DNA of 64,000 nt from a virus. Made by a program: the position numbers and the translations under genes. Numbering within the stretch: position 1 is the first letter of the stretch; every line of letters starts with the position of its first letter. Under the pieces are notes generated by a model, which saw only the letters and a list, made by a program, of their open reading frames with translations, searched no databases and had not been told where the DNA came from. The DNA is taken from IMG/VR virus record IMGVR_UViG_3300036791_001056, positions 1 to 64,000 of that record. One strand, given 5' to 3'. Positions 6,933 to 32,395 of the stretch are shown piece after piece.

Positions 6933-6951
6933 GCTCACTGAGAAGGTGTGA

Positions 6952-11111: not shown

Positions 11112-11393
11112 GTGACCGCATACCGCTACCGCCGAGGCCCAGTCCCACCGCCGGCGCTGCCCGAGGCAGCTGATACGTGCTGGGCGGCGCAGCGCGCGGT
11201 GCTGTACCGGTTCATGGAGTGCGATCACGATCCCGGCGCAGCGCGCAGCGTCCTCGCGGCGCTGGGCCTGCTGCGGGAGCGCCCGCGGCGCTTGGACGAT
11301 GACGGGCTCACTGATGCGCGGACCAGCCTGCTGTGGGACCCGGAGGGTGCGATCAGCCGGCCTGAGCACACGCGGCGAGCAGATCGCAGCTAA
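11112..11393 (+). CDS. Hypothetical protein
   Basis: ORF in operon. Confidence 0.45.
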   Translation: MTAYRYRRGPVPPPALPEAADTCWAAQRAVLYRFMECDHDPGAARSVLAALGLLRERPRRLDDDGLTDARTSLLWDPEGAISRPEHTRRADRS

Positions 11394-16258: not shown

Positions 16259-16816
16259 ATGACTCTCGTGGCCACATTTGATGAGGCAATCAACAGTGAT
16301 GACCCGCTGGTGCATTACCGAGCTGATGAGAGTGACTGGATGGCGCTGGTCGCGCTGCGGCTCGCCGCTGAGCGCCGGCTGCGCCAGCTCAGCTCGAGCC
16401 AGTGGACCGACACCGCGCGAGGGCTGGAGCAGATGTGGCAGTACCTGGAGCGCGATGAGATGTACGTCATCCGGCACGGCCCGCAGGCCGCCGGCTGCTT
16501 CGCGCTCACCGACCGGTCTGACCCGGAGTTCTGGTCAGGCGACCCGGAGCGCCGGCAGTTCCTGTACCTGCACAAGGTGATCGTCACACCCGACATGACG
16601 GGCGCCGGGGTGGGAGCGTACATCGTGGCTCAGACGATGAGTGATGCTGAGCAGCGCGGCTGCCTCGGCGCTCGGCTCCGGTGCTGGACGGGAAATGACC
16701 GGCTGCGCGCGGTGTGGGAGCGGCACGGGTTCACTTACCTGCGGACGGTTCCCGTTCCGGGTAGTGGCGCTGACGTGCTCATGGAGAGGAGGCTGGTGTG
16801 CCAGCAGCCAGCGTAA
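16259..16816 (+). CDS. GNAT acetyltransferase
   Basis: YLHKVIV..MTGAGVG; N..LRAVWERHGF. Confidence 0.85.
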   Translation: MTLVATFDEAINSDDPLVHYRADESDWMALVALRLAAERRLRQLSSSQWTDTARGLEQMWQYLERDEMYVIRHGPQAAGCFALTDRSDPEFWSGDPERRQFLYLHKVIVTPDMTGAGVGAYIVAQTMSDAEQRGCLGARLRCWTGNDRLRAVWERHGFTYLRTVPVPGSGADVLMERRLVCQQPA

Positions 16817-17310
16817 TCAATATAGCGGAAGAGTTCGCCGCGGACTTCATGCCAGAGTTCACTCCTGACCGCCGGCAGTGGGCGTTCCTGTGCGACATCG
16901 ACGGCACGTTGGCCAAGATGCACGGTGGTGATGAAGCGCGCGGGCCGTTCGACTGGGATCGCGTGGGTGAAGACCTGCCGAACGAGCCGGTCATCCGCGT
17001 CATCCGAGCCGTTAAGCTCGTGTACCCGGTGATCTTCGCGTCGGGTCGGATGGAGCAGTGCCGTGATCAGACCCACCAGTGGATCCGCGCGAACGTGTGC
17101 GATCACTCTTATGCGTGCTTTTGCCGGGCGCCGATGTGGCTGAGGGCTAATGATGACTTCCGGCCTGACCAGGCGGTGAAGCGCGAGATGTACGACCTCA
17201 TCACTGAGCGGTACCGCGTCATGGGCGTGTTCGATGACCGCCTCAAGGTCATCCACATGTGGCGTGAGCTCGGTCTCACCGTCTTTGACGTGGCGGGGTA
17301 CGAGCAGTGA
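16798..17310 (+). CDS. Polynucleotide 3'-phosphatase (Pnkp HAD domain)
   Basis: CDIDGTLA, SGR, DFRPDQAVK, FDDR; start may be the ATG at 16849. Confidence 0.85.
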   Translation: MPAASVINIAEEFAADFMPEFTPDRRQWAFLCDIDGTLAKMHGGDEARGPFDWDRVGEDLPNEPVIRVIRAVKLVYPVIFASGRMEQCRDQTHQWIRANVCDHSYACFCRAPMWLRANDDFRPDQAVKREMYDLITERYRVMGVFDDRLKVIHMWRELGLTVFDVAGYEQ

Positions 17311-17758: not shown

Positions 17759-17995
17759 GTGATCGACGCCATAATGATGCTGTTCGGCCAGCCAACGCAG
17801 CACATGAGCACGCAGCAGAAGGCGCGCTGGCGGCAGTCATTCGGCAGCATGATCGTGGAGTACCAGGGACCCGCGTGCGCTGCGTGGCGCCAGGGCTCGG
17901 CTGACCTGTGTGAGCACGACTCGTGCTGGGACATCATGACTGAGGGCGCCACCGCTTACTACCGCCGTGTGGAGGCGCTAAGTGCCGGTCGCTGA
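17759..17995 (+). CDS. Hypothetical protein
   Basis: RBS GAGG; overlaps helicase start. Confidence 0.5.
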   Translation: MIDAIMMLFGQPTQHMSTQQKARWRQSFGSMIVEYQGPACAAWRQGSADLCEHDSCWDIMTEGATAYYRRVEALSAGR

Positions 17996-19766
17996 TCACG
18001 CTCCCGGCGGCCGGCCCGTCATCAGCGTTACTACGAACTTTACTGACCGCGACCGGATGCTCCTGGTCCCGGGCAGCGCGTTCAGTGGCGGCAGCACGTG
18101 GCACGTCCCACTCAGCTGGGCGAGCTGCGTCGTGCTGCGCAGCGTGTTCGGAGGCGAGCTGCGGCTGGGGCCTGGGCTGCGGGCGTGGGCGCACTCTGAG
18201 CGGAAACGCATCGAGCGGGCGCTGCTGCTGCGTGACGCGCTGGACCTGCCGCCCGGCTCACCAGGTGGCGCGCTGCTTGATGAGCTCGAGCGCGGCAGCG
18301 CGCGGCGCTTGAGACCGTTCCAGCGCGCGGACGTCGGTTACCTGGTGACAATGGAGCGCGCTGGGCTGTTTGCCCCGATGGGCGCCGGGAAGACCGCCGT
18401 GATGATCAGGACGCTGCAGGTGCTGCGCGCCATCGGGCGAAGCCCCTTTCCGTGCGTGGTCATCGCTCCCAACAGCGTTAAGGCAGCCGTGTGGCCTACT
18501 GAGCTCACGGCCTGGGCGCCGGAGATCAGCTTCACCGTCGTGGACGGTGGCGCCGCGGCGCGGCGTAAGCAGATCATCAGTGGAGCTGACGTTACCATCA
18601 TCAACTGGGAGGCCGTGGCCCTGCACAGCCGGGTCGCCGGGTACGGTGACATCCGGCTGACCGACAAGGACAAGCAGGTCAAGGAGCTCAACGAGCTTGG
18701 CCCGCGCGCTGTGATCATGGACGAGGCTGCTCGGCTGCGCGACGCCAGCACGCGGCAGTCACGGGCCGTCAAGTTCTTGGCGTCGCAAGCGCGGTTCCGG
18801 TTCGCGCTCACCGGGACTCCCGTGGCTGATGACCCGACGGACTTGTGGGGCATTCTTCACGTCGTGGCGCCGGACTGGCACCCCGGCAAGAGTAAGTTCA
18901 TGGACCGGTACGTCTTGACGGGCTACAGCCTGTACGGCGGGCTGGTCGTCATGGGACTGAAGCCTGAGGCTGATGATGAGTTCCGCCGCGTGACTCTGCC
19001 GCTGTACCGGCGGATCCCGAAGGAGATTATCCTACCCCAGCTGCCCGAGAAGCTGCCGCCGCAGGTCCGGCACACGCCGATGACTCCCGCGCAGGCTAAG
19101 CTTTACCGCCAGATGGAGCGTGACATGCTGGCGCAGGTTGATGACCTGCTCGTGGCGCAGAGCCCGATGATCCAAGTCATGCGGCTGATGCAGTTCGCGG
19201 CGGCGACGGCCAGCCACGTGGAGATCACGCGCGATGATGACGGGCGCCCGCATTACAAGATCGAGCTCGCTGAGCCGTCGTGCAAGATTGATGACCTCGT
19301 GGACGTGCTGGCTGAGCTGGGGGATGAGCCCCTGGTTGTCGCGGCAGTCTCACGGCAGCTCATCGACCTGGCTGCTGACCGGCTGCGGCGCGAGGGTATA
19401 TCGTGCGAGGCCATCGTGGGCGGGATGCCCGCTGCTGACCGGGCCGCTGCTGTCCGCCGGTTCCAGGACGGAGATGTCCGAGTCATCCTCCTGGTACTCG
19501 CCACCGGTGCTGAGGGGCTCAACCTGACTCGGTCACGCGTGATCTTGTTCATGCAGGAGGATTACCGGACCGATCTCAATGACCAGGCGGTCGACCGCGT
19601 CCACCGGATCGGGTCAGAGATCCACTCGAGCATCCAGGTGATCAAGCAGATCACTCCCAGGACCGTTGAGGAGCGTAAGCCCGTGATCTTGGCTGAGAAG
19701 CACAGCCGGATCGAGGAGGTGCTGCGCGACCGTGACGCGGTGACGCGCCTGCTCGGCGGCAGGTAG
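17982..19766 (+). CDS. SNF2-family helicase
   Basis: MGAGKT, MDEA, LTGTP, EGLNL, QAVDRVHRIG. Confidence 0.93.
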   Translation: MPVADHAPGGRPVISVTTNFTDRDRMLLVPGSAFSGGSTWHVPLSWASCVVLRSVFGGELRLGPGLRAWAHSERKRIERALLLRDALDLPPGSPGGALLDELERGSARRLRPFQRADVGYLVTMERAGLFAPMGAGKTAVMIRTLQVLRAIGRSPFPCVVIAPNSVKAAVWPTELTAWAPEISFTVVDGGAAARRKQIISGADVTIINWEAVALHSRVAGYGDIRLTDKDKQVKELNELGPRAVIMDEAARLRDASTRQSRAVKFLASQARFRFALTGTPVADDPTDLWGILHVVAPDWHPGKSKFMDRYVLTGYSLYGGLVVMGLKPEADDEFRRVTLPLYRRIPKEIILPQLPEKLPPQVRHTPMTPAQAKLYRQMERDMLAQVDDLLVAQSPMIQVMRLMQFAAATASHVEITRDDDGRPHYKIELAEPSCKIDDLVDVLAELGDEPLVVAAVSRQLIDLAADRLRREGISCEAIVGGMPAADRAAAVRRFQDGDVRVILLVLATGAEGLNLTRSRVILFMQEDYRTDLNDQAVDRVHRIGSEIHSSIQVIKQITPRTVEERKPVILAEKHSRIEEVLRDRDAVTRLLGGR

Positions 19767-20844: not shown

Positions 20845-21065
20845 CTGATGCGATTGAGCCGCGCGCAGCGGGTGATGAGGAGCTCTTGGCAGCGCTCACC
20901 ATCACCTGGCGAGCGATCCGAGAGCACGTTGTGACGAGCACCGCGCCCATCATCTGGAGCTGTGGTCCCCGGCCGCTCCAGTCGTCAGATGAGATCAGCA
21001 TCAGCGTGGGTAGCCGGCACTTTTCGGTCAGCGTCACTGATGCGGGGCTGATCACCGGTGAGTGA
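20841..21065 (+). CDS. Hypothetical protein
   Basis: RBS GGAGG; operon packing. Confidence 0.5.
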   Translation: MTDAIEPRAAGDEELLAALTITWRAIREHVVTSTAPIIWSCGPRPLQSSDEISISVGSRHFSVSVTDAGLITGE

Positions 21066-22032
21066 CGCGCCCATCATCCTGTCGCACAGCCAGCTCAAGT
21101 CATTCACGATGTGCCGGCGGCGGTGGTGGCTGGCGTGGCACCTCGGCTGGACTCTCAAGAGCGAGGTGCCGACGGGCGTTGTGCACATCGGCAGTCACAT
21201 CCACCTCGCCCTCGAGGGGTGGTACGGCTACGGCCTGGACCCGCTGCAGGTGCTGCGCTGGTCGTATGCTGATGTCATCGCGCAGCAGCCTGGGCACGCT
21301 GAGCAGCTGCGGAAGGACCTCGACCTGGCCGAGGCGATGGTCGATGGGTTCATGAGCTGGGCAGCAGCTGAGGGCATCGACCAGGGTCTGGAGGTCATCG
21401 CCACCGAGCACGAGGTCAGCCACGAGGTAAACCTGCCGGGAGCGGCCGGCCAGCAGGTGATCTTCCGCGCTAAGCTCGATCAGCTCGTGCGCCGTGAGAG
21501 TGATCACCGGCTCTTGTTTCGTGATTGGAAAACCGTAGGGGGCCTTGAAAAGAGCGCGGCGCTGCTGCTTGACCAGCAGATGCGGTTCTACGCGCTGCTG
21601 CAGGGACTGGTCCATCGTGATCCGCGCGACCGCGCTGATGGTGCCCTGTACGTTATGCTGAGGCGCTCTAAGCGGACAGCGCGCGCTACCGGGCCATTTT
21701 ACCAGCAGCTCGAGGTGACGTACAACCGGCACGATCTCAACAGCACGTACCTCCGCGCTGTCTCGGTGGCTGATGGCATCATGCGCACTAAGCAGCTGCT
21801 GGCGGGCGCTGATGGTAAGTTCTTCGCTGATCACCGGTACGCGTGCCCGCCGAACCCGACGGACTTCTGCACTTGGGGCTGTCAGTTTTTTAGGATCTGC
21901 GCGATGTTCGATGACGGCAGCCGGGTCGATGCTGCGCTGGCGGCCGAGTATGTTCAGGCGGATCCGTATAAATACTACGATACGTCGCGGATCCAGCGCG
22001 CTGTAACGGCGCTCAGCCCGGTACAGCAGTGA
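21058..22032 (+). CDS. Cas4/RecB-like PD-(D/E)xK exonuclease
   Basis: SHSQLKSF.MCRRRW, KLD, DWKT, QMRFY, C-terminal Cys cluster. Confidence 0.88.
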   Translation: MSDAPIILSHSQLKSFTMCRRRWWLAWHLGWTLKSEVPTGVVHIGSHIHLALEGWYGYGLDPLQVLRWSYADVIAQQPGHAEQLRKDLDLAEAMVDGFMSWAAAEGIDQGLEVIATEHEVSHEVNLPGAAGQQVIFRAKLDQLVRRESDHRLLFRDWKTVGGLEKSAALLLDQQMRFYALLQGLVHRDPRDRADGALYVMLRRSKRTARATGPFYQQLEVTYNRHDLNSTYLRAVSVADGIMRTKQLLAGADGKFFADHRYACPPNPTDFCTWGCQFFRICAMFDDGSRVDAALAAEYVQADPYKYYDTSRIQRAVTALSPVQQ

Positions 22033-22513: not shown

Positions 22514-23311
22514 GTGATGGGAGTCTCATTGCCTGTGCCTCAGTACGGCATAAATGCGATATTCCACGGCCCGTCCAAGGCCGGTAAGTCATATCTCGGT
22601 GACACCACTCCCGGTCCTCGCGTCGTGTTGGACGCTGAGGCCGGCTCGCGGTTCACGCCGAGCAAGAAGATCTTGTGGGATCCCATCAGGCAGCAGCCCA
22701 ATGACTTGCTGGCCACCCCGGGCTGGGACACGGCACTGGTGCCGGTGCGCGACTTCCGGACGGTGCAGAAGGCGTTCGAGTGGCTGAACTCCGGCCAGCA
22801 CCCGTTCCGCAGCGTGGTCATGGACTCGATCTCTGAGGTGCAGCAAAGAGCTGTCGATGACATAGCGGGCACTAACCAGATGCAGACTCAGGACTGGGGC
22901 CAGCTGCTGCGCATCGTCTCGGACCTGGTGCGCAAGTTCCGAGACCTCGTCGCAAATCCCATCAAGCCGCTGGATGCGGTCGTCTTCATCGCGATGACGC
23001 GGCAGGTGAATGAGGTCTGGCGACCCTACGTGCAGGGTCAGCTCAGCACCACGCTGCCCTACTACGTAGACATAGTCGGCTACCTGGCACCCATCGTGAC
23101 GCCCGAGACCGGTGAGCTGACGCGGCGCCTGTTCACCGGCACGTTCCCGGGCTATGAGACCGGTGAGCGCGTCGGCGGATGCCTAGGCCCATTTACCGAC
23201 AGCCCGGACGTCAGCCGCATGCTGGCGACCATCCGGGCCCGGACTGACGCTGGCATCATCACAGCTGATGCCGGTGTCATCACAGCACAGCCGCAGCCGC
23301 TCTTGAGCTAA
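22514..23311 (+). CDS. Sak4-like AAA_24 ATPase (recombinase)
   Basis: GPSKAGKS, LDAEAG, VVMDSISE; lies between exonuclease and SSB. Confidence 0.85.
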   Translation: MMGVSLPVPQYGINAIFHGPSKAGKSYLGDTTPGPRVVLDAEAGSRFTPSKKILWDPIRQQPNDLLATPGWDTALVPVRDFRTVQKAFEWLNSGQHPFRSVVMDSISEVQQRAVDDIAGTNQMQTQDWGQLLRIVSDLVRKFRDLVANPIKPLDAVVFIAMTRQVNEVWRPYVQGQLSTTLPYYVDIVGYLAPIVTPETGELTRRLFTGTFPGYETGERVGGCLGPFTDSPDVSRMLATIRARTDAGIITADAGVITAQPQPLLS

Positions 23312-23384: not shown

Positions 23385-24050
23385 GTGACTACCGTTCCGT
23401 GGAGTGACCTGCAGAAGGCGGCCGGGGAGGCGGGATTTGACCCAGTTCCAGCCGGTACGTACGACGTCGTGATCGACACCGCGCAGGCTAAGACGGCCGC
23501 TACCGGTAAGAACATGATCGCCGTTAAGTTCAAGGTTGAGAACGGCCCGCAGCAGGGCAAAACGATCTTCAACCAGTTCGTGCTCTCACCCGACAGTGCC
23601 AATGCGCTCGCGTTCTTCTTCCGGCACATGACCGCGCTGGGTCTCGGTGAGGCGTACTTCGCGGCGCAGCCCCCGCTCGAGCGGGTGGCAGGTGACCTCA
23701 TCGGGCGGCGGTGCCAAGTTCAGGTGTCCATCCGGCAGTGGCAGGGCACAGACCGCAACCAGGTCGAGGCGGTGGCCCCGCCCGTGGGCGGGCCGGGCGC
23801 CGCGCCAGCACCCGCAGGCCTGCCCGGGATGACTCCCGGCGGCGCACCAGCGGGACCGGCACCGGGTGTTCCGGCCACGTCACCCGCTCCTGCCGGCCTA
23901 GCACCGGCACCTCCCGCGCCGCCAGCATCTTCTCCCCGGCAGTCACCACCGCCCGCAGTCCCGCAGGTACCGGTGACTGTGCCCTCACCAGCACCATCGC
24001 CCACGCCGCCCCCGCCTCCCGGCATGGGTGACGATGACCTGCCGTTCTGA
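23385..24050 (+). CDS. DUF669-like single-stranded DNA-binding protein
   Basis: PVPAGTY, Pro-rich linker, DDDLPF tail. Confidence 0.85.
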   Translation: MTTVPWSDLQKAAGEAGFDPVPAGTYDVVIDTAQAKTAATGKNMIAVKFKVENGPQQGKTIFNQFVLSPDSANALAFFFRHMTALGLGEAYFAAQPPLERVAGDLIGRRCQVQVSIRQWQGTDRNQVEAVAPPVGGPGAAPAPAGLPGMTPGGAPAGPAPGVPATSPAPAGLAPAPPAPPASSPRQSPPPAVPQVPVTVPSPAPSPTPPPPPGMGDDDLPF

Positions 24051-24628
24051 TGAGCCGGTACCGCTCGGATCCTGACGTGACCGTCACGCTCCGCGGCGCC
24101 GCGCGCGCCGCGCGCCTCGCGGACATCGGCGGCGCGCGGCATGTCGTGATCGATGTGGACGGCTGCCTCACACCCGGCTACCAGGTGATGGACGAGTCAG
24201 GCAGTAAGCCCGTCAAGGTGTTCGGCCTCGATGACTTCGCGGCGCTGATGCGCTGGTGGGGCATGTTCGACGTCACAGCAGTCACCAGCGACCTCTGCCC
24301 GCCTACGATCGCGCGGCTAGAGAGCTGGGGAGTGCCCCTGACGGAGGCACCAGCCGAGTCAGCTGCCCGCGTCAGCGTTATCCGAGCCATTACCGGCTCA
24401 GACCTCATGACGTGCGTATATATTGGCGACGGGTATCATGATGCATCTGTCATGCACCAGGTCGGGTTCGGGATCGCGCCAGCTGACGCGTGGCCCGAGA
24501 CGGCCCGGGCAGCGGACGGGGTCACCAGCGCGCCGGGTGGGCGCCGCGCGGTCGCGCTGGCGCTTGACTTCATCGGCGAGAACCTGCTGGCCAGCCCTGG
24601 ACAGGGCCGATCACCAGGTGTAAGATGA
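24050..24628 (+). CDS. KdsC-like HAD sugar-phosphate phosphatase
   Basis: IDVDGCLT, YIGDGYHD, APADA, PGGRRAV. Confidence 0.85.
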   Translation: MSRYRSDPDVTVTLRGAARAARLADIGGARHVVIDVDGCLTPGYQVMDESGSKPVKVFGLDDFAALMRWWGMFDVTAVTSDLCPPTIARLESWGVPLTEAPAESAARVSVIRAITGSDLMTCVYIGDGYHDASVMHQVGFGIAPADAWPETARAADGVTSAPGGRRAVALALDFIGENLLASPGQGRSPGVR

Positions 24629-24649
24629 GAGAGGAAGGGAGATGAGCCA

Positions 24650-25546
24650 GTGGAACTGTGCGTAGGAGCCACGAGTCGCATCGTGGTCGAGGAGGCCGCG
24701 AAGCTGGGTGTGGCGCAGATCATCGCGAGCCGGCGGCAGGTCAATGCCGGTGGCGGCTACACCGGCTTGACGCAGCGCGATCTCGTAAAGACTGTTCAAG
24801 ACATCAATCCCACGGTGAAGATCATCCGAGATCACGGCGGACCGTACCAGAACGGTGATCCCCACGACAACTGGGTCCGAGAGCTCGATGAGGACGAGCG
24901 TGCTGGCTTCGACGGGCTGCACCTGGACGTGTCCACGCTGCCTCGTGATGATCAGGTAAAGGAGCTGCAGCGGCTCGTCAACCGCTACGCGACCAGTGGC
25001 GTCACCAGCATCCAGATCGGCGGAGAGCGGGACAGCCAAGCGTGGCTGTTCGTCTTGCTGGCCGCGACGCTGGCGGCAGGCGCGCACCCGTCTCACTGCG
25101 TTACCGCGCTCGGCGGGCACGTTCACGCAGACAGGCAGTGCGGAGAGCTGCTCTCGGTTCCCGAGGCCCGGCACGTCACCCTGATGTATCACGCCCTGGG
25201 CGTTAAGACGGTCGCGCACAACACTGACTTCTGCGACCGCGGTAAGTATTCATCAGCGGTCGACGCGATGAACGTGGCGCCTGAGTTCGGAGTCATCGAG
25301 ACAGATGCGTGGCTGCGCGCCGCCGGGCCGGATGTGGCCAGCGAGCTGCTTAAGTCCGGGTACGAGTCGCAGCGCTGGCTGCGCTGGTTCGGCGCCGGCT
25401 CGCGCGGCACCCGGTTCGAGCGCGCCCGCTGCGGGCTGCGGTACATCTGGGCCGAGCTGCTGCCGGACCTCCAGCAGGCCGAGTGGTACCCGCGAGCAGA
25501 GCAGTACGTGAGGCAGGAGGTCAGTGATGCCATCGCAGCCGGCTGA
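24650..25546 (+). CDS. GatZ/KbaZ/UxaE-like TIM-barrel sugar epimerase
   Basis: GGYTG, RDHGGP, GFDGLHLD, AHNTD, NVAPE. Confidence 0.7.
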   Translation: MELCVGATSRIVVEEAAKLGVAQIIASRRQVNAGGGYTGLTQRDLVKTVQDINPTVKIIRDHGGPYQNGDPHDNWVRELDEDERAGFDGLHLDVSTLPRDDQVKELQRLVNRYATSGVTSIQIGGERDSQAWLFVLLAATLAAGAHPSHCVTALGGHVHADRQCGELLSVPEARHVTLMYHALGVKTVAHNTDFCDRGKYSSAVDAMNVAPEFGVIETDAWLRAAGPDVASELLKSGYESQRWLRWFGAGSRGTRFERARCGLRYIWAELLPDLQQAEWYPRAEQYVRQEVSDAIAAG

Positions 25547-26024
25547 GTCACCTGCGCCGATGCCACCCCAAGGTGACTGTGGCGCGTGGGTGAGTGATGA
25601 TGCATCGCTGCCGCAGCGCAAGTATTCGACGGGTAAGCTCATCAGTGCCCTCGGTGAGCTGCCCTGGGGCGTAACTGTTCACCAGAAGCCGTGGGGCACC
25701 GAGCAAGAGCTGTCACTGCCCGTCCTGAACTTTACCGTTAAGCGGCTGGTCGTCCGGAGTAACGCGCGGACGTCACTGCAGGTTCACGAGAGCAAGGACG
25801 AGGTCATCATTATCCTCGGCCCGGATGACCCGCCAGAGATCCAAGAGCGCGGCTTCGTCGAGCTCGCGGTGCTCGGCGGAGAGCTGACGGTGGTAGACCT
25901 GCCGGTGATTCACGTCCCTCCGAGCGTAACGCACCGCGTTACCGGGCCGCTGGAGTACCTTGAGATCTCCACGTACCACCCGGATGATGTGATCCGGCTA
26001 GCGGATGATTACGGGCGGTCATGA
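25524..26024 (+). CDS. Cupin sugar isomerase (mannose-6-P isomerase C-terminal type)
   Basis: KPWG, TSLQVHESKDE, HR, EIST, DVIRLADDYGR. Confidence 0.8.
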   Translation: MMPSQPAESPAPMPPQGDCGAWVSDDASLPQRKYSTGKLISALGELPWGVTVHQKPWGTEQELSLPVLNFTVKRLVVRSNARTSLQVHESKDEVIIILGPDDPPEIQERGFVELAVLGGELTVVDLPVIHVPPSVTHRVTGPLEYLEISTYHPDDVIRLADDYGRS

Positions 26025-27538
26025 TGAGTAACTCAGCTTTCGTCATCCTCGCCGCTGGCCGTGGCAGCCGGATGGGCCGGGTGGGAGAGAGCCTGCACAA
26101 GGCGCTCTTGCCGTTGAGCCAGAAGGCGATTCTCACTCACCTCATCGAGCTCGGCCCGCCTGATGCTGAGCTCATCATCTGCACCGGGTACCGCTCTGGC
26201 CAGCTGCGGGATTACATGGCGCTGGCGCATCCTGGGACGCCGGTAACGTGGGTTCACGTGCCGGGCTGGTCAGAACCCGGTGGCGGTCCCGGTGCCTCGC
26301 TGCTGGCGGCGCGTGAGGCGATCGGCGGGCGCAGCCTCGTAGTCACGTCGTGCGACACGCTCTGGGACCGTGACCCGACGCTGTGGCACGCTGATCTCGA
26401 GTCGTGGGCTGCCCACGCGCCTATTCCGGCGGGCAGTGCTCCTGAGCGCTGGTGCCGGCTGGCTGTGACGGGTGACCGCGTCAGCGCGGTGATCGACAAG
26501 AGCTCGGGTGAGTTGGGAGCAACGCGGGCGTACACGGGCCTCGCGCACATTGCCGTCACTGATCTGGCGGCGTTCTGGCGCGGCATCGAGGCGGGGCAGC
26601 TGCTGAACGGCGAGCTGCGGGACCCGGCCGGGCTGGCTGCGCTCGCTGAGCGAGGACGGCTGCGCGGTCGCCGCATCGGGTGGCTGGACACGGGTGACAT
26701 GATGGCGTACCGGCGCGCTGTCATCCTCCGTGACGGGTATGACTGGTCGAAGAGTCAAGAGGCCACGTGGGTGCTGCCCAGCAGCGGGCGCGTCGTTAAG
26801 TGGTGGGCAGACAGCGCAGCGGCGCTGCGCACCGCTCAGCGGCAGCGCTGGCTCACTGAGTTCGGCACCAGCGTCTCTGCCATCGAGGCGCAGCGCAACT
26901 CAATGCTTGGGCTGCGGTATGTCCCCGGTATCATCGGCTATGACGCGGTTAAGAGCGCTGATGATCTCACCGCGCTGCTGTCATCTCCACAGTTCGCGGC
27001 GATCTCACGGCCAGTCAAGGTAGATCCGGCTGCTGCGCGCGCCGCGTGCAGCAATTTCTACCATCTTAAGACCTTGACCCGGGTGAGCATGCTGCGCCAG
27101 CCGGTCCGGTCACTGGCTAGTGACGTTGCCCAGCAGATCCGCTGGGATGATGTGATCAATCACCCGCTTCCATCACGGTTTCACGGTGACTTCAATCTCG
27201 GGAACATGATCTTCGACGGGCAAGACTGGCGGTTTATCGACTGGCGCGACTCATTCGACGGCGCCTTCGGCACGCTCTGGGGTGACTACCGGTACGACGC
27301 CGCTAAGTTCCTCGCCGGTCTGCGCGTCCGATGGGACTGGGCACGGCACGGTGACTTCACGCCGTGGGCGACCGGGCGCGTGCTGTACCAGCACGCCCGC
27401 GAGCTGCTGGGCATCACGCCCGGCGTTGAAGAGATCGGGGTGCTGTCACTGCTGGCGTCTGCACCGCTGCACGAGGTGCCGCTGGACGAGGTGCTGGTGA
27501 CGCGCGCGGCCGAGTGGATGAGTGAGCTGAGGACGTAA
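26021..27538 (+). CDS. Sugar nucleotidyltransferase fused to APH/choline-kinase-like phosphotransferase
   Basis: ILAAGRGSRM..KALLPL, WLDTG; HGDFNLGN, FIDWR. Confidence 0.85.
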   Translation: MMSNSAFVILAAGRGSRMGRVGESLHKALLPLSQKAILTHLIELGPPDAELIICTGYRSGQLRDYMALAHPGTPVTWVHVPGWSEPGGGPGASLLAAREAIGGRSLVVTSCDTLWDRDPTLWHADLESWAAHAPIPAGSAPERWCRLAVTGDRVSAVIDKSSGELGATRAYTGLAHIAVTDLAAFWRGIEAGQLLNGELRDPAGLAALAERGRLRGRRIGWLDTGDMMAYRRAVILRDGYDWSKSQEATWVLPSSGRVVKWWADSAAALRTAQRQRWLTEFGTSVSAIEAQRNSMLGLRYVPGIIGYDAVKSADDLTALLSSPQFAAISRPVKVDPAAARAACSNFYHLKTLTRVSMLRQPVRSLASDVAQQIRWDDVINHPLPSRFHGDFNLGNMIFDGQDWRFIDWRDSFDGAFGTLWGDYRYDAAKFLAGLRVRWDWARHGDFTPWATGRVLYQHARELLGITPGVEEIGVLSLLASAPLHEVPLDEVLVTRAAEWMSELRT

Positions 27539-28986
27539 TGCTCCGGATCGCTTACGGTAAGCTCGGCCGCATCGTCATATTTGACCAGAGCAAGTGGAAG
27601 ATGTCGGGTGAGGCGGAGGCTACCAACCTGCTGTACCGGCTCGCCGAGCGGAACCCGGCCATAGAGTGGCACGTTATCGGGAAGTCATCGGGTACTCCTG
27701 ACCCGCGCTACCCGAACATCGTGCGGTACTGGGACGAGAGCACGCCGAAGTCAGCGTGGGGCGTGGTTCCGGGTGGCGGTGGGCACATGTGCAATCACTG
27801 CAAGACTCCTGTGACCGAGTACACGTACCGGCTGCTGTGCTGTGGGCGCTCCAAGAGTGCGACCGAGTATGAGGAGCACCTCGCGCAGCTGGCTCCCAGC
27901 TTGGACGGTGCGGTGTTCCACCTGGGACAGCACGGCACCAGCCATAACTTCATTCCCAAGGTCGGGCGCACTTGGGATGACCAAGCGAGAGACGCCCGGG
28001 TGCGCCCGTACGTCTGGGCATTCAACTACGGCGGGTACGCGGTCCGAGCTCTCAACGCGCTCATGGACGCGCATGACGGCGAGACGGGCCGCATGGCGTG
28101 GCTCTGCCCGGACCCGCGGAACTACATGAACGGCCGCGACGTCAAGTGGCCCACGGGACTGGACGAGTTTGAGCCCGTCTTGGCGCAGTACGGCTGCGTG
28201 CTCAACGGCGTTCACGAGCGCTGGCGAGATGGCCGGCGGCCAGATCACCTCGGCATGGATGCCCGCATCGACGGCGGCACGTGGCGAGTTCAGCACCACT
28301 ACCGGCAGTCAGGCCTGGACATGCAGATGCTGCCCGATGACTGGGAGAGCTGGCCCGGCGAGGCATTTGCTGACCGGCATCCCATCGGTGTGGTGTCCAC
28401 GGCTGCGTACCTGCCACGCCGCGACTTCCGGCGCAGCGCGATGATCGCTGACTGGGTGCTGAGCAGCTTCCCGAGCGCGCCCATCTACGGGAAGTGGGAT
28501 GACCGGTCACTGGCTGACCTGCCCGCTGGCGCTAATATAGCAGCCAACACCCCTCACGACTTTGCTCAGCTCTTGGGATCGCTGCGGACGACGGTTGTTC
28601 TCCCGCCGACTCCCGCGGGCGCAGACGGGATGAAGTGGTGCACCGCTAAGCCGTGGCAAGCGTTCGCGGCGCGCGCCGTCGCATTCATGCTGCCGCCGGT
28701 GGACGCGCAGGGCTGGGTGATCCCGGCCACCCGGCAGGTGCCGGGCACGAGGCAAGTAGGAGTGGGTCTCTGGTCAGCCCGAGATGACTGGGCTGATGAG
28801 GACCTGCACCTCGCGAGCTGGCTGCGGCCCCAGAGCCCAGCTGAGCTGCAGGTGCGTGCCCACGCCGCGAGCACCAGCCCGGCCACGTGGGAGTGGCTCG
28901 TGACGGCGCAGCGGCGGCTGCTGGCTCGGCGGTGGGAACTGCGTGAGATAGAGTCTAGCATCGAGGAGAGGCTGAAGCTGAGATGA
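27538..28986 (+). CDS. Putative DNA glycosyltransferase (GT-B-like)
   Basis: N-terminal LRIAYGK beta-strand, PIYGKW, TAKPWQ; position in sugar and nucleotide operon; family assignment is inferred. Confidence 0.55.
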   Translation: MLRIAYGKLGRIVIFDQSKWKMSGEAEATNLLYRLAERNPAIEWHVIGKSSGTPDPRYPNIVRYWDESTPKSAWGVVPGGGGHMCNHCKTPVTEYTYRLLCCGRSKSATEYEEHLAQLAPSLDGAVFHLGQHGTSHNFIPKVGRTWDDQARDARVRPYVWAFNYGGYAVRALNALMDAHDGETGRMAWLCPDPRNYMNGRDVKWPTGLDEFEPVLAQYGCVLNGVHERWRDGRRPDHLGMDARIDGGTWRVQHHYRQSGLDMQMLPDDWESWPGEAFADRHPIGVVSTAAYLPRRDFRRSAMIADWVLSSFPSAPIYGKWDDRSLADLPAGANIAANTPHDFAQLLGSLRTTVVLPPTPAGADGMKWCTAKPWQAFAARAVAFMLPPVDAQGWVIPATRQVPGTRQVGVGLWSARDDWADEDLHLASWLRPQSPAELQVRAHAASTSPATWEWLVTAQRRLLARRWELREIESSIEERLKLR

Positions 28987-29216
28987 GTGAGAAGTACGAG
29001 AGCGCTGCTGATCTGGCGGCCAAGGTGGACTACGAGGGCAGTGTTGCCGACGCCATCATCGGTTACGGGATCAAAACCGAAGACCTGCCGGACGAGACTC
29101 CTCCTGATGTCCGTGCGGCGTGGGACCGGGTAGCGGGCATAACTGATGACGTCAACTACATCATCGAGTGGCTCGATGATGTTCAATCAGCAGCTGATGG
29201 GGATGAGCGTGAGTGA
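28983..29216 (+). CDS. Hypothetical protein
   Basis: Overlapping start/stop packing. Confidence 0.6.
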   Translation: MSEKYESAADLAAKVDYEGSVADAIIGYGIKTEDLPDETPPDVRAAWDRVAGITDDVNYIIEWLDDVQSAADGDERE

Positions 29217-29788
29217 GTAGTACCGACGGCTGGCGCTGGCTCGAGTCGACCCGTGAGCTGCAAGAGACCGCTTACGGCGTGGACTTCAGCCAGCCTCAGA
29301 CAGGTGCGCAGCGCGCGGACAACATGGTTCACCAGGGCTTTGCGCTGATCATCGAGCTCGCTGAGGCGTTCGGCGAGATCCAGTGGAAGGACTGGGCGCA
29401 GAACCGCGGCGTTATCAACCGTGACGCGATGGTGGGTGAGCTCGTGGACACCGCGCACTTCTTGGCGAACATGCTCACTTACCTCGATGTGACCGATGAT
29501 GAGTGGGAGCTGCGCTACCGCGAGAAGCAAGAGCGCAACCGCGCCCGCCAGCTGCACGGCTATGATGCGGCCGCGACTAAGTGCCCGGAGTGCAAGCGCG
29601 AGCTGGACAAGCCCGGCGCCGTCCGGCTCGGCCGGCGGCGCTCGGCAGACAGCAGCACGCCGCTGGTGTGCGACATGTGCCGGGTCTGGCTGGGCTGGCT
29701 GTCGCGTGATGACCTGGTTATCTGGCGGCCGGGCGTGAGCGTTCCGCAGGTGACATCGGCGTCGTTGTGCGGTCGAGGCGACGAATGA
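29213..29788 (+). CDS. Dimeric dUTPase/dCTPase (T4 gp56-like) with C-terminal Zn ribbon
   Basis: ELAEAFGEIQWKDW...GELVDTAHF...KQERNRARQ..GY. Confidence 0.8.
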   Translation: MSSTDGWRWLESTRELQETAYGVDFSQPQTGAQRADNMVHQGFALIIELAEAFGEIQWKDWAQNRGVINRDAMVGELVDTAHFLANMLTYLDVTDDEWELRYREKQERNRARQLHGYDAAATKCPECKRELDKPGAVRLGRRRSADSSTPLVCDMCRVWLGWLSRDDLVIWRPGVSVPQVTSASLCGRGDE

Positions 29789-30315
29789 GCGCGTTTAACC
29801 CGCTGACGCGCCCATCGTGGGACGAGTGGGGGCTGGGACTGGCTGCCGCGGTGGCTACCCGCGGCGAGTGCACCCGCCGGCGGATCGGCGCGGTCATCGT
29901 GAGCCGGCGCAGCCGGCAGGTGTGGGCCGGGTACAACGGCGCGCCGCCGGGAGCTAAGAGCTGCCTGCAGGGAGCGTGCCCCCGGGGACGGCACTTCGAG
30001 TTGGCTCGCGCCCAGCGCTTGGACGCGTCGACGGCCACGCAGTGTGCCTGTGGCAACGCGTGGCCGTGTCACCTGGCGGTCCTGCCGGACAGCGCGTACG
30101 ACACGGGAGAGGGCGCCTGCATCGCCACTCACGCCGAGCTGAACTGCCTGCTCGACGCTGGGAGGGCGCAGCTGAGCGCTGACTGCGTGATGTACGTGAG
30201 TGACCAGCCGTGTCCGGGCTGCCAGAAGATCGTAGCCGGGTACATCAGCCGCATCGTGTGGCCTGGTGGTGAGATCAGCGTGCCCAGAATTCATGTGCCG
30301 CCAGAATTCAAATAA
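29785..30315 (+). CDS. dCMP deaminase
   Basis: RPSWDE, GYNG, HAELN, PCPGC. Confidence 0.92.
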   Translation: MSAFNPLTRPSWDEWGLGLAAAVATRGECTRRRIGAVIVSRRSRQVWAGYNGAPPGAKSCLQGACPRGRHFELARAQRLDASTATQCACGNAWPCHLAVLPDSAYDTGEGACIATHAELNCLLDAGRAQLSADCVMYVSDQPCPGCQKIVAGYISRIVWPGGEISVPRIHVPPEFK

Positions 30316-30341
30316 GTTTTCGATCGTGGTATGATAGAGTC

Positions 30342-32153
30342 GTGACCTACACCTTCCTGGACTGCCAGGGATTCGCCGGAGGCTTCGCTTGCGGTGCCAC
30401 GCTGGCGGGCTTTAAGCTCATCGGTAAGCAGGAGAACCCGAAGAACTTCGGTGGCCTGCTCATGGAGGCCAACCGAGCGCTGCTCGGTGATGACTGGCAG
30501 ACCCAAGCGTGCGCGCCTGCTGAGTGGGAGCCCATCCGTGCCCACGTGGTGTTCGGGAACCCGCCGTGCTCGGGATTCTCGAACTTCAGCGCCGGGACGG
30601 GTGCGTACGGCATCGACTCCAAGATCAATGACTGCATGTGGGACCTGCACCACTACGCGGCGAGGGTGCGGCCTCATATTGTCATCATGGAGTCTGTGGC
30701 GCAGGCGTTCAGCAAGGGCCTGCCGCTGATGCAAGAGCTGTCGGCTACCCTGCGCCGCGAGTCCGGGCTGGCGTACCGGACCACCCACGTCATTCAAGAC
30801 AACTACTCGGTAGGCGGCTGCACGCTGCGGCGTCGGTACTTTCTCGTGAACAGCCTGGTCCCGTTTGGCGTCGAGAGGTTCGAGCACACGTGGCTGCCCA
30901 CCGTGGGAGACGCCATCAGTGACCTGCGCTCACTTCCCGCATCGTGGGATGCGCAGCGGTACCAGGCGCCGCCGACGTGGTGGTCGCACCAGCTGCGCTC
31001 ACCTGACGGGCTGGTGGACGGGCACAGCGTCATTCCGGTCCCGAACATGCAGCGCCTCTCGGCGCTGCAGCGCGATCACGTGCGGTGGGAGCCGGGTGAC
31101 CGCGAGTCCGAGATGCTGCAGAAGTACTACAATGAGTTTGGTGAGCTGCCGGAAGAATATGATTACCAGTCGCACGCCAGCCACACGCGGCACCTCTCGC
31201 GGGCCAAGCACCTCATTGACCGCGGTCTCGAGACGGGAGGCTACGGCCAGACGCGGTACTGGCCGTGGGACCAGCCCGGCCGCGTCATCACCGGTCACGG
31301 CCCGTACCAGGTCCGGCACCCAGACAACAGACCGTACACGCACCGTGAGACCGCGCGCATCATGGGATTCCCAGATGACTGGGTGTGCGGCTCGCTGCGG
31401 CACATCAAGGGCATGCACCAGTACTGGGGCAAGGGAACGTCAGTTCACCCGGCGCTGTGGATCACGAGCTGGGCGCGCGAGTCGCTGGACGGGAACCCGG
31501 GCAGCCTGCAGGGTCAAGTGCTGCCTGACGGCAGCCATCTCATCGATGTCTCACCTGACTGGAAGGCGGCTGCTCGGCGGCTGGGCATCGCTGAGCAGTT
31601 CGGGCTGGCGGTCCGAGACGCGCAGACCCGGGTGCTGCCGCCGGCTGCGCCAGAGTCCGAGGAAGAGGAGAGGATCGAAGTGAGTGACGAGGAGATCAGT
31701 GACCTGCTCGATGCTGAGCTGCTGATGCATCCTGATGACGATCCGGAAGAGCCAGCTGAGCTAGATCACCAGCGCAGCGCGGACTTCAGCGATGAGGCGG
31801 CTGAGCTGCCTGAGTGGGAGCGGGAGCTGCTGGCGCGCCAGCACGTGCCGCCTCCTGACGCACTGGTGGTTCCCGAGACTCTCACTACTGGCGCAGACAA
31901 CAAGCGCTACCCAGGGTGGGAGTATGACCGGAGCCCGGCGAAGGGACCCACGTGGCGACCGGAGGTCCTGGACCGGCTGGTTGACCTAGCGCAGCTGAGC
32001 ACCGGGGCCGACGCTAAGCCGGGGCAGGTCGCCGTCGTCATCAACAGCGCAGCGTTCCGAGACACGCACGGGGCCCAAGAGCTGCGGGGCTGCGCGTCTT
32101 ATCACGTCACACAGGCCCGGGCGCGGTTGGCGCAAGAACGATCACCAGGGTGA
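30342..32153 (+). CDS. C5 cytosine DNA methyltransferase with acidic C-terminal extension
   Basis: GFAGGF (motif I variant), GNPPCSGFS, MESV, RRRYF, RETARIMGFPDDW. Confidence 0.85.
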   Translation: MTYTFLDCQGFAGGFACGATLAGFKLIGKQENPKNFGGLLMEANRALLGDDWQTQACAPAEWEPIRAHVVFGNPPCSGFSNFSAGTGAYGIDSKINDCMWDLHHYAARVRPHIVIMESVAQAFSKGLPLMQELSATLRRESGLAYRTTHVIQDNYSVGGCTLRRRYFLVNSLVPFGVERFEHTWLPTVGDAISDLRSLPASWDAQRYQAPPTWWSHQLRSPDGLVDGHSVIPVPNMQRLSALQRDHVRWEPGDRESEMLQKYYNEFGELPEEYDYQSHASHTRHLSRAKHLIDRGLETGGYGQTRYWPWDQPGRVITGHGPYQVRHPDNRPYTHRETARIMGFPDDWVCGSLRHIKGMHQYWGKGTSVHPALWITSWARESLDGNPGSLQGQVLPDGSHLIDVSPDWKAAARRLGIAEQFGLAVRDAQTRVLPPAAPESEEEERIEVSDEEISDLLDAELLMHPDDDPEEPAELDHQRSADFSDEAAELPEWERELLARQHVPPPDALVVPETLTTGADNKRYPGWEYDRSPAKGPTWRPEVLDRLVDLAQLSTGADAKPGQVAVVINSAAFRDTHGAQELRGCASYHVTQARARLAQERSPG

Positions 32154-32395
32154 GCGTCACCGTGCCGGGCGTGAGCGCGCCCGGCTACAGCGCCATCGCG
32201 GGCGCCGTCACGGGCGTCGTGCTCTGGGTGCTGAGCACGTATGCCTTCAGCGGCCGCGCGGTGCCCGCGCCCATCGAGGGCGCGGCGTGGGTGCCGATCC
32301 CGGCCGCGGTCAGCGGCTTGGCCGCGCTCGTCACCCGGCGGAGCACGACCTCAACGACATCAGCTCCCTCACCAGCGGAATCATCACATCGCTGA
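32150..32395 (+). CDS. Small two-TM membrane protein
   Basis: Two hydrophobic segments. Confidence 0.55.
   Translation: MSVTVPGVSAPGYSAIAGAVTGVVLWVLSTYAFSGRAVPAPIEGAAWVPIPAAVSGLAALVTRRSTTSTTSAPSPAESSHR

Follow-up and report, generated by a model that had tools for sequence, protein, structure and literature searches.

Sugar-Nucleotide Genes Coupled to a Predicted DNA Glycosyltransferase Gene in the Replication Module of a Soil Phage

RESULTS

The DNA analyzed here (the window) covered positions 1 to 64,000 of an IMG/VR virus record of 146,953 bp, which CheckV rated as 100% complete and which came from a soil phage of about 147 kb. We found a string of 11 translationally coupled genes, all on the + strand, downstream of the SSB gene (DUF669; 23385 to 24050, + strand; PF05037, E = 5e-11; PHROG 378 SSB). 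The junctions in the string were overlaps of 1 to 23 nt or gaps of no more than 26 nt, and no terminator-like sites were found on the + strand between positions 20000 and 34000. An earlier note on this DNA had named eight of the genes, and all eight were located on the + strand at the positions assigned to them, with the string lying directly 3' of the SSB gene. Two small ORFs also belonged to the string. The 77-aa ORF (28983 to 29216, + strand) overlapped each neighbor by 4 nt, and its sole match was PHROG 22497 (unknown function; E = 1e-4); the 81-aa ORF (32150 to 32395, + strand) closed the string and had no match in a family search. The operon had also been described as self-contained. This description did not hold, because a TS homologue and a dNMP kinase were encoded at 7534 to 9500, and an SDR, two methyltransferases, and two more glycosyltransferases (GTs) were encoded at 52 to 59 kb.

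The string began with four sugar genes, which are referred to here as the cassette. The first gene (24050 to 24628, + strand) encoded a KdsC-like HAD phosphatase, with matches to TIGR01670 (E = 6e-16) and NF007019 (E = 8e-10) that were both below the cut-off and a DxD nucleophile motif (DVDGC). Its similarity to RB69 gp51 was not significant. The predicted role of this protein is to strip the terminal phosphate from a sugar 1,omega-bisphosphate, as in AfhF or GmhB. The second gene (24650 to 25546, + strand) encoded a compact GatZ/KbaZ-like TIM barrel with the class II aldolase fold. This assignment came from structure, as the Pfam score was 22.6 bits against a cut-off of 26.7. The AF2 model (pLDDT 95.7) matched 3txv in Foldseek (E = 1.7e-14, TMq 0.72), followed by 2fiq and then class II aldolases, and the profile of the family matched 2fiq with an E value of 4e-6. 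The metal-site motifs DHGGP, HxD, and AHNxD were invariant, and the family numbered more than 2000 homologues, each about 295 aa long. We predict that the barrel is a ketose-phosphate epimerase or an aldolase.

The third gene (annotated as 25524 to 26024, + strand, although its start probably lies downstream of 25524) encoded a small cupin resembling the C-terminal part of PMI (PF01050, E = 3e-4; TIGR01479, E = 2e-4; both below the cut-off). The cupin and GatZ-like genes occurred together in 57 of 80 loci, and the cupin is predicted to be an aldose-ketose phosphate isomerase. The fourth gene (26021 to 27538, + strand) encoded a fusion of an N-terminal sugar-1-phosphate nucleotidyltransferase (PF12804, E = 3e-14) and a C-terminal APH-fold sugar kinase (PF01636, E = 2e-4), in which GxGxR, K27, and HGDxxxxN...DWR were invariant. 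In hhalign comparisons, the profile of the fusion matched RB69 ORF053c (probability 95.9, E = 6e-9) and ORF052c (probability 96.6, E = 7e-10), and the HGDxxxxN kinase motif lined up with that of RB69 gp52:53, the AfhE equivalent. Judged by these alignments, the fusion is distantly homologous to AfhE. The earlier proposal that these are activated-sugar genes was thus strengthened, since the same kinase-phosphatase-nucleotidyltransferase logic has been experimentally shown for the phage UDP-arabinose route (PMC13326640). None of the operon proteins matched a SIS-type isomerase, and a GatZ-like barrel and a cupin were present instead; a sugar other than arabinose is therefore likely.

The gene that follows the cassette (27538 to 28986, + strand) encoded a 482-aa protein with no match in Pfam, PHROG, or NCBIfam. 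The earlier note had called it a putative GT and had proposed that its predicted structure be compared with DNA glycosyltransferases. The AF2 model (pLDDT 94.9) had a GT-B fold, and T4 DNA beta-glucosyltransferase (BGT) was its lone best match among 48,161 PDB representatives searched with VIA-align (Z 23.2, rmsd 3.3 Å, 312 of 333 residues aligned; next chain, Z 17.9). T4 BGT was again the top match when VIA-align was confined to the best 1000 chains from Foldseek; over the two scans, it scored Z 23.2 to 23.3 with 312 to 317 residues aligned, and the next chains scored Z 17.9 to 18.7. In BFVD, the second-best viral match bore the name "DNA beta-glucosyltransferase" (E = 5.5e-14). Similarity at the sequence level was found neither to T4 BGT (hhalign probability 10%) nor to the RB69 GT. 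Homologues fell into 94 clusters, and the family was located in 68 viral loci, within a replication and nucleotide-metabolism module with the gene order SSB-GT-...-dUTPase-C5MT. It looks like a phage transferase family that had no prior name.

Based on the model, the 482-aa protein is predicted to be a DNA 5hmC glycosyltransferase, and we infer that its acceptor is DNA rather than protein. It could instead act on a protein, cell-wall, or small-molecule acceptor, leaving the DNA with bare 5hmC or unmodified. GT-B enzymes with diverse acceptors reached Z 15 to 18 against the model, and the protein lacked sequence homology to any DNA GT, both of which fit such an acceptor. However, T4 BGT stood more than 5 Z above all other families in the full PDB-representative scan and was covered nearly end to end, the GT gene kept a fixed place between the SSB and dCTPase genes in more than 60 loci, and it adjoined the TS homologue gene in rearranged genomes (in locus L019, the order was C5MT-TS-x-x-GT). 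We consider a non-DNA acceptor unlikely.

A cytosine-type TS homologue, of the kind that the earlier note had cited for T-even phages, was encoded at 8559 to 9500 (+ strand; PF00303, 59 bits), and it carried the signature of a 5-hydroxymethyl-dCMP synthase. Its closest PDB entry was the CMP hydroxymethylase MilA (5b6d, E = 6e-22), and its pairwise match to T4 gp42 had an E value of 5e-7. In TS homologues, N177D confers cytosine specificity, L143D/E leads to a hydroxymethyl rather than a methyl group, and D169N marks 5-hydroxy-C (PMC13326640). The protein had the catalytic Cys (DVPCT), Asp at the positions of E. coli L143 and N177 (GLPYD), and an unchanged D169; therefore, 5hmC is predicted rather than 5hoC. 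All 10 tested records of related viruses that bear the GT also encoded the TS homologue, always with Cys, Asp143, Asp169, and Asp177. Relatives without the 482-aa GT family (Gordonia phage GMA2 and DSL-LC01) likewise had an Asp-type TS, and the co-occurrence of the GT and the TS homologue may reflect lineage inheritance.

Directly upstream of the TS homologue gene was a gene (7534 to 8505, + strand) for a dNMP/thymidylate-kinase-like P-loop kinase (residues 1 to 150; PHROG 761 thymidylate kinase, E = 3e-12). It shared 30% identity over its full length with the "thymidylate kinase" of phage DSL-LC01, and its C-terminal domain of about 170 aa had no Pfam match. The kinase is predicted to convert 5hm-dCMP to 5hm-dCDP. 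Within the string, the gene at 29213 to 29788 (+ strand) encoded an all-alpha NTP pyrophosphatase of the dUTPase_2/MazG-like type (PF08761, E = 3e-9; PHROG 18650, E = 2e-22). It matched T4 gp56 in a pairwise BLASTP comparison (E = 3e-6) and is predicted to be a dCTPase/dUTPase. The gene at 29767 to 30315 (+ strand) encoded a dCMP deaminase (PF00383, E = 3e-13; PHROG 174, E = 1e-34).

The gene at 30342 to 32153 (+ strand) encoded a C5-cytosine DNA methyltransferase-like protein (residues 1 to 370; PF00145, 52.7 bits, cut-off 22) with the motifs GNPPCSGFS (PPC intact), ESV, RRRYF, and RE.ARIMGFPD. The C-terminal 230 aa had no match in Pfam or Atlas. A homologue was encoded in 55 of the 68 GT loci, in the DNA examined around the GT gene. 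The earlier note had counted this enzyme among the hypermodification genes. We do not credit it to the route because 5-substituted cytosine is no substrate for a C5-MTase. No TET/JBP enzyme was matched across the whole genome. A conserved C5-MTase-like enzyme is also hard to reconcile with complete replacement of C. A post-replicative route of the TET/JBP type, in which the C5-MTase makes 5mC that is then oxidized and glycosylated, or a modified base that is 5hmU, would fit the conservation in the module of a C5-MTase with an intact PPC motif and the presence of the dCMP deaminase and dUTPase-family genes. However, besides the missing TET/JBP match, ThyX was not found, and the base-specificity position of the sole TS homologue was occupied by Asp rather than Asn in all relatives examined. 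We regard such a route as highly improbable.

The other sugar genes were located at 52 to 59 kb. A second GT, of the GT4/GT1 family, was encoded at 52444 to 53691 (+ strand; PF00534, E = 3e-10; PHROG 2170, E = 2e-22) and might use the NDP-sugar in place of the BGT-like GT. On the - strand were genes for a NAD-dependent sugar epimerase/dehydratase (SDR; 55540 to 56571; PF01370, E = 1e-36), two tandem SAM methyltransferases or methyltransferase-like proteins (56496 to 57083 and 57053 to 57652; Methyltransf_23, E = 4e-9 for the latter), and a small putative GT (58273 to 58941; PHROG 14945, E = 3e-6), which was the first gene of this minus-strand sugar operon. The SDR likely tailors the NDP-sugar. 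It shared 38 to 45% identity with the closer GT-adjacent SDRs of relatives and 26 to 29% with the others.

The cassette was restricted neither to this phage nor to DNA modification. Of 80 other viral loci sampled, 76 carried it, mostly without the 482-aa GT family or TS, and capsid genes adjoined in some. In L084, L086, and L094, the cassette (46 to 49% identity) adjoined portal, protease, and capsid genes and GT2/GT4 genes, and it was contiguous with homologues of the SDR and the tandem methyltransferases of the window (51 to 59% identity). The cassette-adjacent SDR in L084 and L094 was 52 to 53% identical to that of the window, and the tandem methyltransferases were 51 to 59% identical to the cassette-adjacent methyltransferase-family pair in L084 (cluster c12, in which the Pfam methyltransferase match sits on the L094 member). 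These arrangements suggest that the cassette in the three loci serves virion glycosylation. In the complete relatives G001 and G002, GT2-like gene clusters were located elsewhere in the genome.

Because the cassette adjoins capsid genes in other phages, virion glycosylation is a live rival explanation. Specifically, the BGT-like GT might draw on UDP-glucose or another host donor to glycosylate 5hmC DNA. The rare NDP-sugar of the cassette, tailored by the SDR and methyltransferases, might go via the GTs at 52 to 59 kb to virion proteins or the host envelope. The setting of L084, L086, and L094 favors this division of labor, as does the proximity of the window's SDR/methyltransferase operon to genes for a GT4 enzyme and a small GT. 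Furthermore, a sugar gene was not detected beside the GT gene in L038 and L039, and a lone NTP-transferase-type gene was beside it in L014 and L015; as few or no sugar genes adjoin, the GT in these loci may use a common host donor. In contrast, the cassette was translationally coupled to the BGT-like GT gene here and in L002, L004 to L006, and L010, and an SDR gene lay directly after the C5-MTase gene, inside the nucleotide module, in L004 and L010. The GT tree also followed the kind of neighboring sugar genes: members with an upstream nucleotidyltransferase-kinase gene formed one clade (SH-aLRT 100; 8 of 9 members), and more distant GTs had SDRs, NTP transferases, or an unassigned 350-aa family as neighbors instead. 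Separate uses for the two sets of genes are a serious but not a probable explanation.

DISCUSSION

The GT fold, the hydroxymethylase homologue, and the logic of the sugar genes support the hypermodification reading of the earlier note; its self-contained operon and its role for the C5-MTase were not upheld. We think it somewhat probable that, as in T4, 5hmC is made in place of cytosine before replication and is then glycosylated on the DNA with a rare NDP-sugar of the phage's own making. We infer all steps from homology, anatomy, and gene neighborhood. The gp56-like pyrophosphatase (29213 to 29788) would convert dCTP and dCDP to dCMP, the Asp-type TS homologue (8559 to 9500) would produce 5hm-dCMP, and the dNMP kinase (7534 to 8505) would give the diphosphate; a host NDP kinase and the phage PolA would then bring 5hm-dC into DNA. 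The dCMP deaminase would supply dUMP for host thymidylate synthesis. In the sugar arm, the GatZ-like barrel (epimerase/aldolase) and the cupin (isomerase) would yield a rare aldose omega-phosphate from a central ketose phosphate. C1 would then be phosphorylated by the kinase half of the fusion, the KdsC-like HAD would take off the terminal phosphate, and the nucleotidyltransferase half would form the NDP-sugar, which the SDR and methyltransferases (55.5 to 57.6 kb) may tailor further. The BGT-like GT-B enzyme (27538 to 28986) would attach this sugar to 5hmC in DNA at its hydroxymethyl group.

The phage shares its set of functions with the T4 glucosyl-hmC system (gp56, gp42, gp1, cd, and beta-glucosyltransferase). 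The Cys/Asp signature of the TS homologue is common to both, the pyrophosphatase is gp56-like, and the nearest solved structure to the GT is T4 BGT. However, the phage GT is 130 aa longer than BGT with undetectable sequence similarity, the replication module, built on PolA/SNF2/AAA_24/DUF669, resembles those of actinophages, and a C5-MTase-like gene occupies the position of Dam in T4. The donor probably differs as well: with four NDP-sugar enzymes encoded ahead of the GT, it is unlikely to be host UDP-glucose, and because the phage has its own activated-sugar pathway, the sugar is probably not glucose.

In the Afh system of RB69, DLP3, and HY126, an arabinose-5-phosphate isomerase, the AfhE nucleotidyltransferase-kinase, the AfhF HAD phosphatase, and arabinosyltransferases lead to arabinosyl-5-hydroxycytosine (PMC13326640). 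Both systems have an N-terminal nucleotidyltransferase/C-terminal kinase fusion with a partner HAD phosphatase, and in both, the sugar genes cluster with genes for a TS homologue and a DNA GT. In this phage, however, a KdsC-like phosphatase takes the place of AfhF, a GatZ-like barrel and a cupin replace the isomerase, the TS homologue has D169, and the GT is unrelated to that of RB69.

The NDP-heptose route consists of the GmhA isomerase, the HldE/HddA kinase, the GmhB HAD phosphatase, and the HldE/HddC nucleotidyltransferase. The same four steps (isomerization of a ketose phosphate, phosphorylation of C1, removal of the terminal phosphate, and addition of the nucleotide) are shared, but each is assigned to another protein family here: the SIS protein is replaced by a cupin and a GatZ-like protein, the ribokinase or GHMP kinase by an APH-fold kinase, and GmhB by a KdsC-like HAD. 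Actinobacteriophages have virion glycosylation clusters in which GT and methyltransferase genes lie near capsid genes, and the cassette of L084, L086, and L094 sits in exactly such a setting. The window likewise has homologous SDR/methyltransferase genes and extra GTs, but 25 kb separate them from its cassette, which is coupled to the BGT-like GT.

The novelty here is a cassette tied to a predicted DNA glycosyltransferase: it is coupled to the BGT-like GT gene in the DNA-replication module, beside a 5hmC-type nucleotide pathway. Glycosylated 5hmC would shield the phage DNA from host nucleases.

Operon organization and genome context

The window spans the first 64 kb of a 146,953-bp IMG/VR genome that CheckV rated as complete. 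The G+C content of the window was about 65%, and the genes between 5 and 32 kb were on the + strand throughout. Family searches placed a replication region on this strand, with genes for an intein-interrupted family A DNA polymerase (12034-14781), an SNF2 helicase (17982-19766), a PD-(D/E)XK nuclease (21058-22032), an AAA_24 ATPase (22514-23311), and a DUF669 SSB (23385-24050). The polymerase insert had Intein_splicing and HTH matches at residues 421-664 and separated the exonuclease domain from the polymerase domain. The replication module also held a GNAT acetyltransferase gene and a gene with a PNKP-type HAD phosphatase domain (PF25109, E 3e-37), both within 16259-17310. Elsewhere in the window, a possible phage sigma factor of 197 aa, with a sigma-70 region 4 domain, was encoded at 51237-51830, and a 559-aa protein (41915-43594) matched PHROG 850, "RNA-binding protein" (E 2e-48).

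In tblastn searches, the closest deposited phages were Micrococcus phage Kurnik, three Gordonia phages (GMA2, Sixama, and GodonK), large phages of Microbacterium and Arthrobacter, and DSL-LC01, an Actinomycetia phage assembled from metagenomic data. Because the nearest phages are actinobacterial, the host is probably an actinobacterium, as judged by sequence similarity.

The region from 24050 to 32395 contained 11 ORFs with overlaps of 1-23 nt or gaps of no more than 26 nt, and no terminator-like sites were found on the + strand between 20 and 34 kb. The gene labels assigned in the earlier note were each borne out by family searches, with varying strength. Clear matches were obtained for a fusion of NTP_transf_3 and APH domains (the NT-kinase), a dCMP deaminase, a dUTPase_2 protein, and a C5-MTase, while the matches for the KdsC-like HAD protein, the GatZ-like protein, and the cupin fell under the curated cut-offs. 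A 77-aa ORF had no Pfam match at E <= 1. When 50,697 deposited phage genomes were searched, neither megablast with the operon nor tblastn with the glycosyltransferase (GT), the NT-kinase, and the GatZ-like protein returned a match.

Fold of the 482-aa glycosyltransferase

The 482-aa protein encoded at 27538-28986 had been called a putative GT, and comparison of its predicted structure with DNA glycosyltransferases had been suggested. It had no match in any of the family libraries searched, and its family comprised about 94 protein clusters, none named and none with a Pfam domain. An AlphaFold2 model built from a 64-sequence alignment (pLDDT 94.9, pTM 0.92) showed a GT-B fold, and the best solved match was T4 DNA beta-glucosyltransferase (BGT), which was also the top Foldseek match (E 1e-7). 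In VIA-align, the first three BGT entries scored Z 23.0-23.3 and the fourth 22.5, with an rmsd of 3.3-3.7 A over 312-321 of 333-351 residues; the best non-BGT chain, a GT4 enzyme, scored 18.7. A separate scan of 48,161 PDB representatives placed BGT alone on top, with a Z score of 23.2 versus 17.9 for the next chain and a best superposition of 3.3 A rmsd over 312/333 residues; the T4 alpha-GT scored 16.4 and the HY126 arabinosyltransferase 14.2 in the same scan. Among predicted viral structures, two matches (E 2e-17 and 5.5e-14) were far ahead of the remainder, and one of the two carried the name DNA beta-glucosyltransferase.

Sequence comparisons gave no corresponding signal. The family profile aligned with T4 BGT at a nonsignificant hhalign probability of 10.5%, comparisons with the RB69 GT (ORF050c) and GMA2 Orf59 were likewise not significant, and profile and sequence searches of PDB sequences found nothing, nor was there a Pfam match. 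The invariant residues of the family included D192, R194, R200, R299, K371, and D389. On the basis of the model, the 482-aa protein is BGT-like by fold and is not classed within CAZy family GT63.

Gene neighborhoods of the glycosyltransferase family

We read the neighborhoods of the GT in IMG/VR loci, 68 of which encoded the family. The gene order in almost all 68 was PolA, helicase, nuclease, AAA_24, SSB, GT, variable genes, dUTPase_2, and C5-MTase. The variable genes adjoining the GT encoded sugar-nucleotide enzymes: an NT-kinase in 8 loci (with the GatZ-like protein and cupin in 5 and the HAD protein in 3-5), SDR epimerase/dehydratases in 16, and plain NTP transferases in 11. A family of about 350 aa was encoded directly downstream of the GT in 27 relatives (for example, at 11332-12378 in L012); it had no Pfam match at E <= 1 and no homologue within the genome of the window phage, and a second transferase and a sugar-modifying enzyme are two possible roles for it. 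A 282-aa protein adjoining the GT in relatives also had no Pfam match at E <= 1. In DSL-LC01, the same position was occupied by an unrelated GT and a UDP-galactopyranose mutase, and in GMA2 a GT1-family GT lay between the SSB and dUTPase genes. These differing genes after the SSB gene mark the position as a variable glycosylation slot.

In a quick maximum-likelihood tree, GTs with an upstream NT-kinase formed one clade (SH-aLRT 100, 8/9 members). This clade fits co-evolution of donor and transferase, and relatedness alone could also yield it.

Predicted synthesis of the modified base

The genome encoded one TS homologue, at 8559-9500, which matched PF00303 with 59 bits (cut-off, 24.3) and whose best solved relative was the CMP 5-hydroxymethylase MilA (E 6e-22). 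Its DVPCT motif aligned with the catalytic Cys of TS (C146 in Escherichia coli), MilA, and T4 gp42. Where the E. coli enzyme has L143 and N177, the homologue had Asp (motifs DVPC and GLPYD), and the motif MRSND kept Asp169 in the window protein and all relatives examined, so the D169N mark of 5hoC synthases was lacking. In the TS family, N177D signals cytosine specificity, L143D/E signals a hydroxymethyl rather than a methyl product, and D169N marks 5-hydroxy-dCMP synthases (PMC13326640). With Asp at positions 143 and 177 and a retained Asp169, the enzyme is predicted to make 5hm-dCMP, not 5ho-dCMP or dTMP. Two other sources of the base chemistry were considered and removed: a post-replicative 5mC oxidation route, because the 146,953-bp genome gave no TET/JBP match (PF12851, E <= 1), and a second thymidylate synthase, because ThyX was absent from the genome.

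The gene directly upstream of the TS homologue was thymidylate-kinase-like. The C-terminal domain of this dNMP kinase (7984-8505, about 170 aa) remained without a Pfam match at E <= 1, which left the "UDG-like" label given to it earlier unconfirmed. The two-domain protein was conserved whole in DSL-LC01 (30% identity, 306 aa).

A TS homologue was found in 10/10 GT-bearing virus records tested, with the same four residues in all. GMA2 (KR063281, 24713-25555) and DSL-LC01 (OQ999401, 988-1848) carried the same TS type, with Asp143, Asp169, and Asp177 in sequence comparison, without this GT family. The base pathway thus appears to be a lineage trait, and the 10/10 co-occurrence is weaker evidence than it appears. 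The TS-type genes of these two phages were deposited as hypothetical or as "thymidylate synthase". Their 5hm-dCMP-synthase signature predicts that cultured Gordonia phages of this group carry modified cytosine. In L019, a complete 66-kb relative with a rearranged gene order, genes for a C5-MTase-like protein, the TS homologue, two small proteins, and the BGT-like GT were contiguous (6760-11251), an arrangement that amounts to a compact version of the system.

Sugar-nucleotide genes

The NT-kinase contained a PF12804 domain (residues 8-115) and a PF01636 domain (residues 371-431), and its family kept GxGxR/Lys nucleotidyltransferase motifs and HGDxxxxN...D kinase motifs. Profile and sequence searches of PDB sequences found nothing for this protein. 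By hhalign, it matched the two halves of the RB69 equivalent of AfhE (both from AY303349) with probabilities of 95.9% (ORF053c, nucleotidyltransferase) and 96.6% (ORF052c, kinase), with the catalytic motifs aligned. In the Afh route to arabinosylated 5-hydroxycytosine, the kinase activity of AfhE yields arabinose 1,5-bisphosphate, from which AfhF takes the 5-phosphate, and UDP-arabinose is formed by the N-terminal domain of AfhE (PMC13326640). An AfhE-type NT-kinase was common to this route and the window phage, whereas for the SIS arabinose-5-phosphate isomerase of the route, no operon protein matched SIS isomerase or KdsD/GutQ models. A KdsC-like HAD protein with a DxD motif adjoined the NT-kinase, and its BLASTP match to RB69 gp51 reached only E 0.019. 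KdsC-type enzymes take terminal phosphates off sugar acids.

The isomerase slot was filled by a GatZ-like barrel protein and a small PMI-like cupin. The GatZ-like protein scored 22.6 bits against PF08013, under the cut-off of 26.7, and had 298 aa compared to about 420 aa for GatZ. Its model (pLDDT 95.7) matched the GatZ-family structures 3txv and 2fiq (E 1e-14, TMq 0.70-0.72) and then class II aldolases, and the DH, HxD, and HNxD motifs were invariant in the family. Some GatZ-family enzymes are ketose-6-phosphate 4-epimerases. Taken with the fold and the cupin, this activity makes it plausible that the cassette turns a ketose phosphate into a rare aldose phosphate, although the sugar is not nameable from sequence or fold.

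Cassette genes in other settings

The GatZ-like family had >2000 clusters. In 80 other viral loci with a GatZ-like gene, an NT-kinase was present in 76 and a cupin in 57, mostly without this GT or TS. Distant copies lay in large sugar clusters with genes for SDR, DegT aminotransferase, TylF methyltransferase, and HAD-NTP transferase proteins. Close copies (46-49% identity; L084, L086, and L094) adjoined portal, prohead protease, and major capsid genes, and their surroundings also held GT2, GT4, SDR, and methyltransferase genes.

The window contained a second sugar locus (52444-58941), in which a GT4 glycosyltransferase gene lay on the + strand (52444-53691) and a string on the - strand encoded a small GT (58273-58941), a 207-aa protein, two methyltransferase or methyltransferase-like proteins, an SDR, and a peptidoglycan-binding lysin-like protein. 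Within this string, at 55.5-57.6 kb, the SDR and both methyltransferases were 51-59% identical to those flanking the cassette in L084 and L094, which suggests that the cassette product may be tailored further. Alternatively or in addition, the product may supply a system that glycosylates the virion or the envelope. The main rival reading follows from this: the cassette sugar would go to virion proteins, and the DNA GT would use a host donor. In 16 relatives, the same SDR family was also encoded directly next to the BGT-like GT, and in L004 and L010 its gene immediately followed that of the C5-MTase; these positions tie it to the DNA module too. We regard the split use as unlikely. The idea that the BGT-like enzyme was the only GT of complete cassette-bearing relatives was ruled out, because two such genomes (G001 and G002) each had three GT2-like genes elsewhere.

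C5-MTase-like protein

The C5-MTase matched PF00145 with 52.7 bits (cut-off, 22), and its motifs (GNPPCSGFS, ESV, RRRYF, RETARIMGFPD, and GKGTSV) were, at the sequence level, those of an active enzyme. Its 230-aa C-terminal tail had no Pfam match at E <= 1 and nothing in the Atlas. A homologue was present within the fetched DNA of 55/68 GT loci and also in GMA2, Kurnik, and DSL-LC01. The earlier note had proposed that the phage attaches an unusual activated sugar to modified cytosine. The BGT-like GT and the predicted T4-like 5hmC pathway supported that interpretation in part. The C5-MTase is hard to place in it, because 5-substituted cytosine is no substrate for a C5-methyltransferase. The protein might target residual cytosines or host DNA, or it might have another role.

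Discussion

We lean toward a mechanism in which a T4-like 5hmC pathway supplies the base, a BGT-like transferase modifies it, and a rare NDP-sugar made by the phage is the donor. A fuller proposal, which we put forward tentatively and hold to be somewhat short of probable, is that the cassette makes a rare and possibly further tailored NDP-sugar, that the BGT-like family in this phage lineage attaches the sugar to 5-hydroxymethylcytosine, and that the C5-MTase-like protein is a partner in the pathway. If true, the locus would add a new DNA hypermodification and give a cassette of GatZ-like, cupin, NT-kinase, and KdsC-like proteins its first defined acceptor. Systems of this kind are already known from T4 and from the Afh route of RB69; what is new for such systems is the transferase family, together with the sugar cassette and the host lineage.

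Glycosylated cytosines are a main means by which phages escape restriction and CRISPR, and to our knowledge nearly all known examples are from T4-like phages that infect Gram-negative bacteria. The locus predicts such a strategy in a high-GC soil phage lineage related to Gordonia and Micrococcus phages, and it puts forward a specific acceptor, open to direct testing, for a biochemically uncharacterized sugar-activation cassette. The sugar, if identified, would extend the list of DNA glycans, with relevance to 5hmC-mapping enzymes and to the prediction of phage restriction resistance. Because GMA2 and its relatives with the Asp-type TS homologue are in culture, the modified cytosine predicted for them is directly testable.
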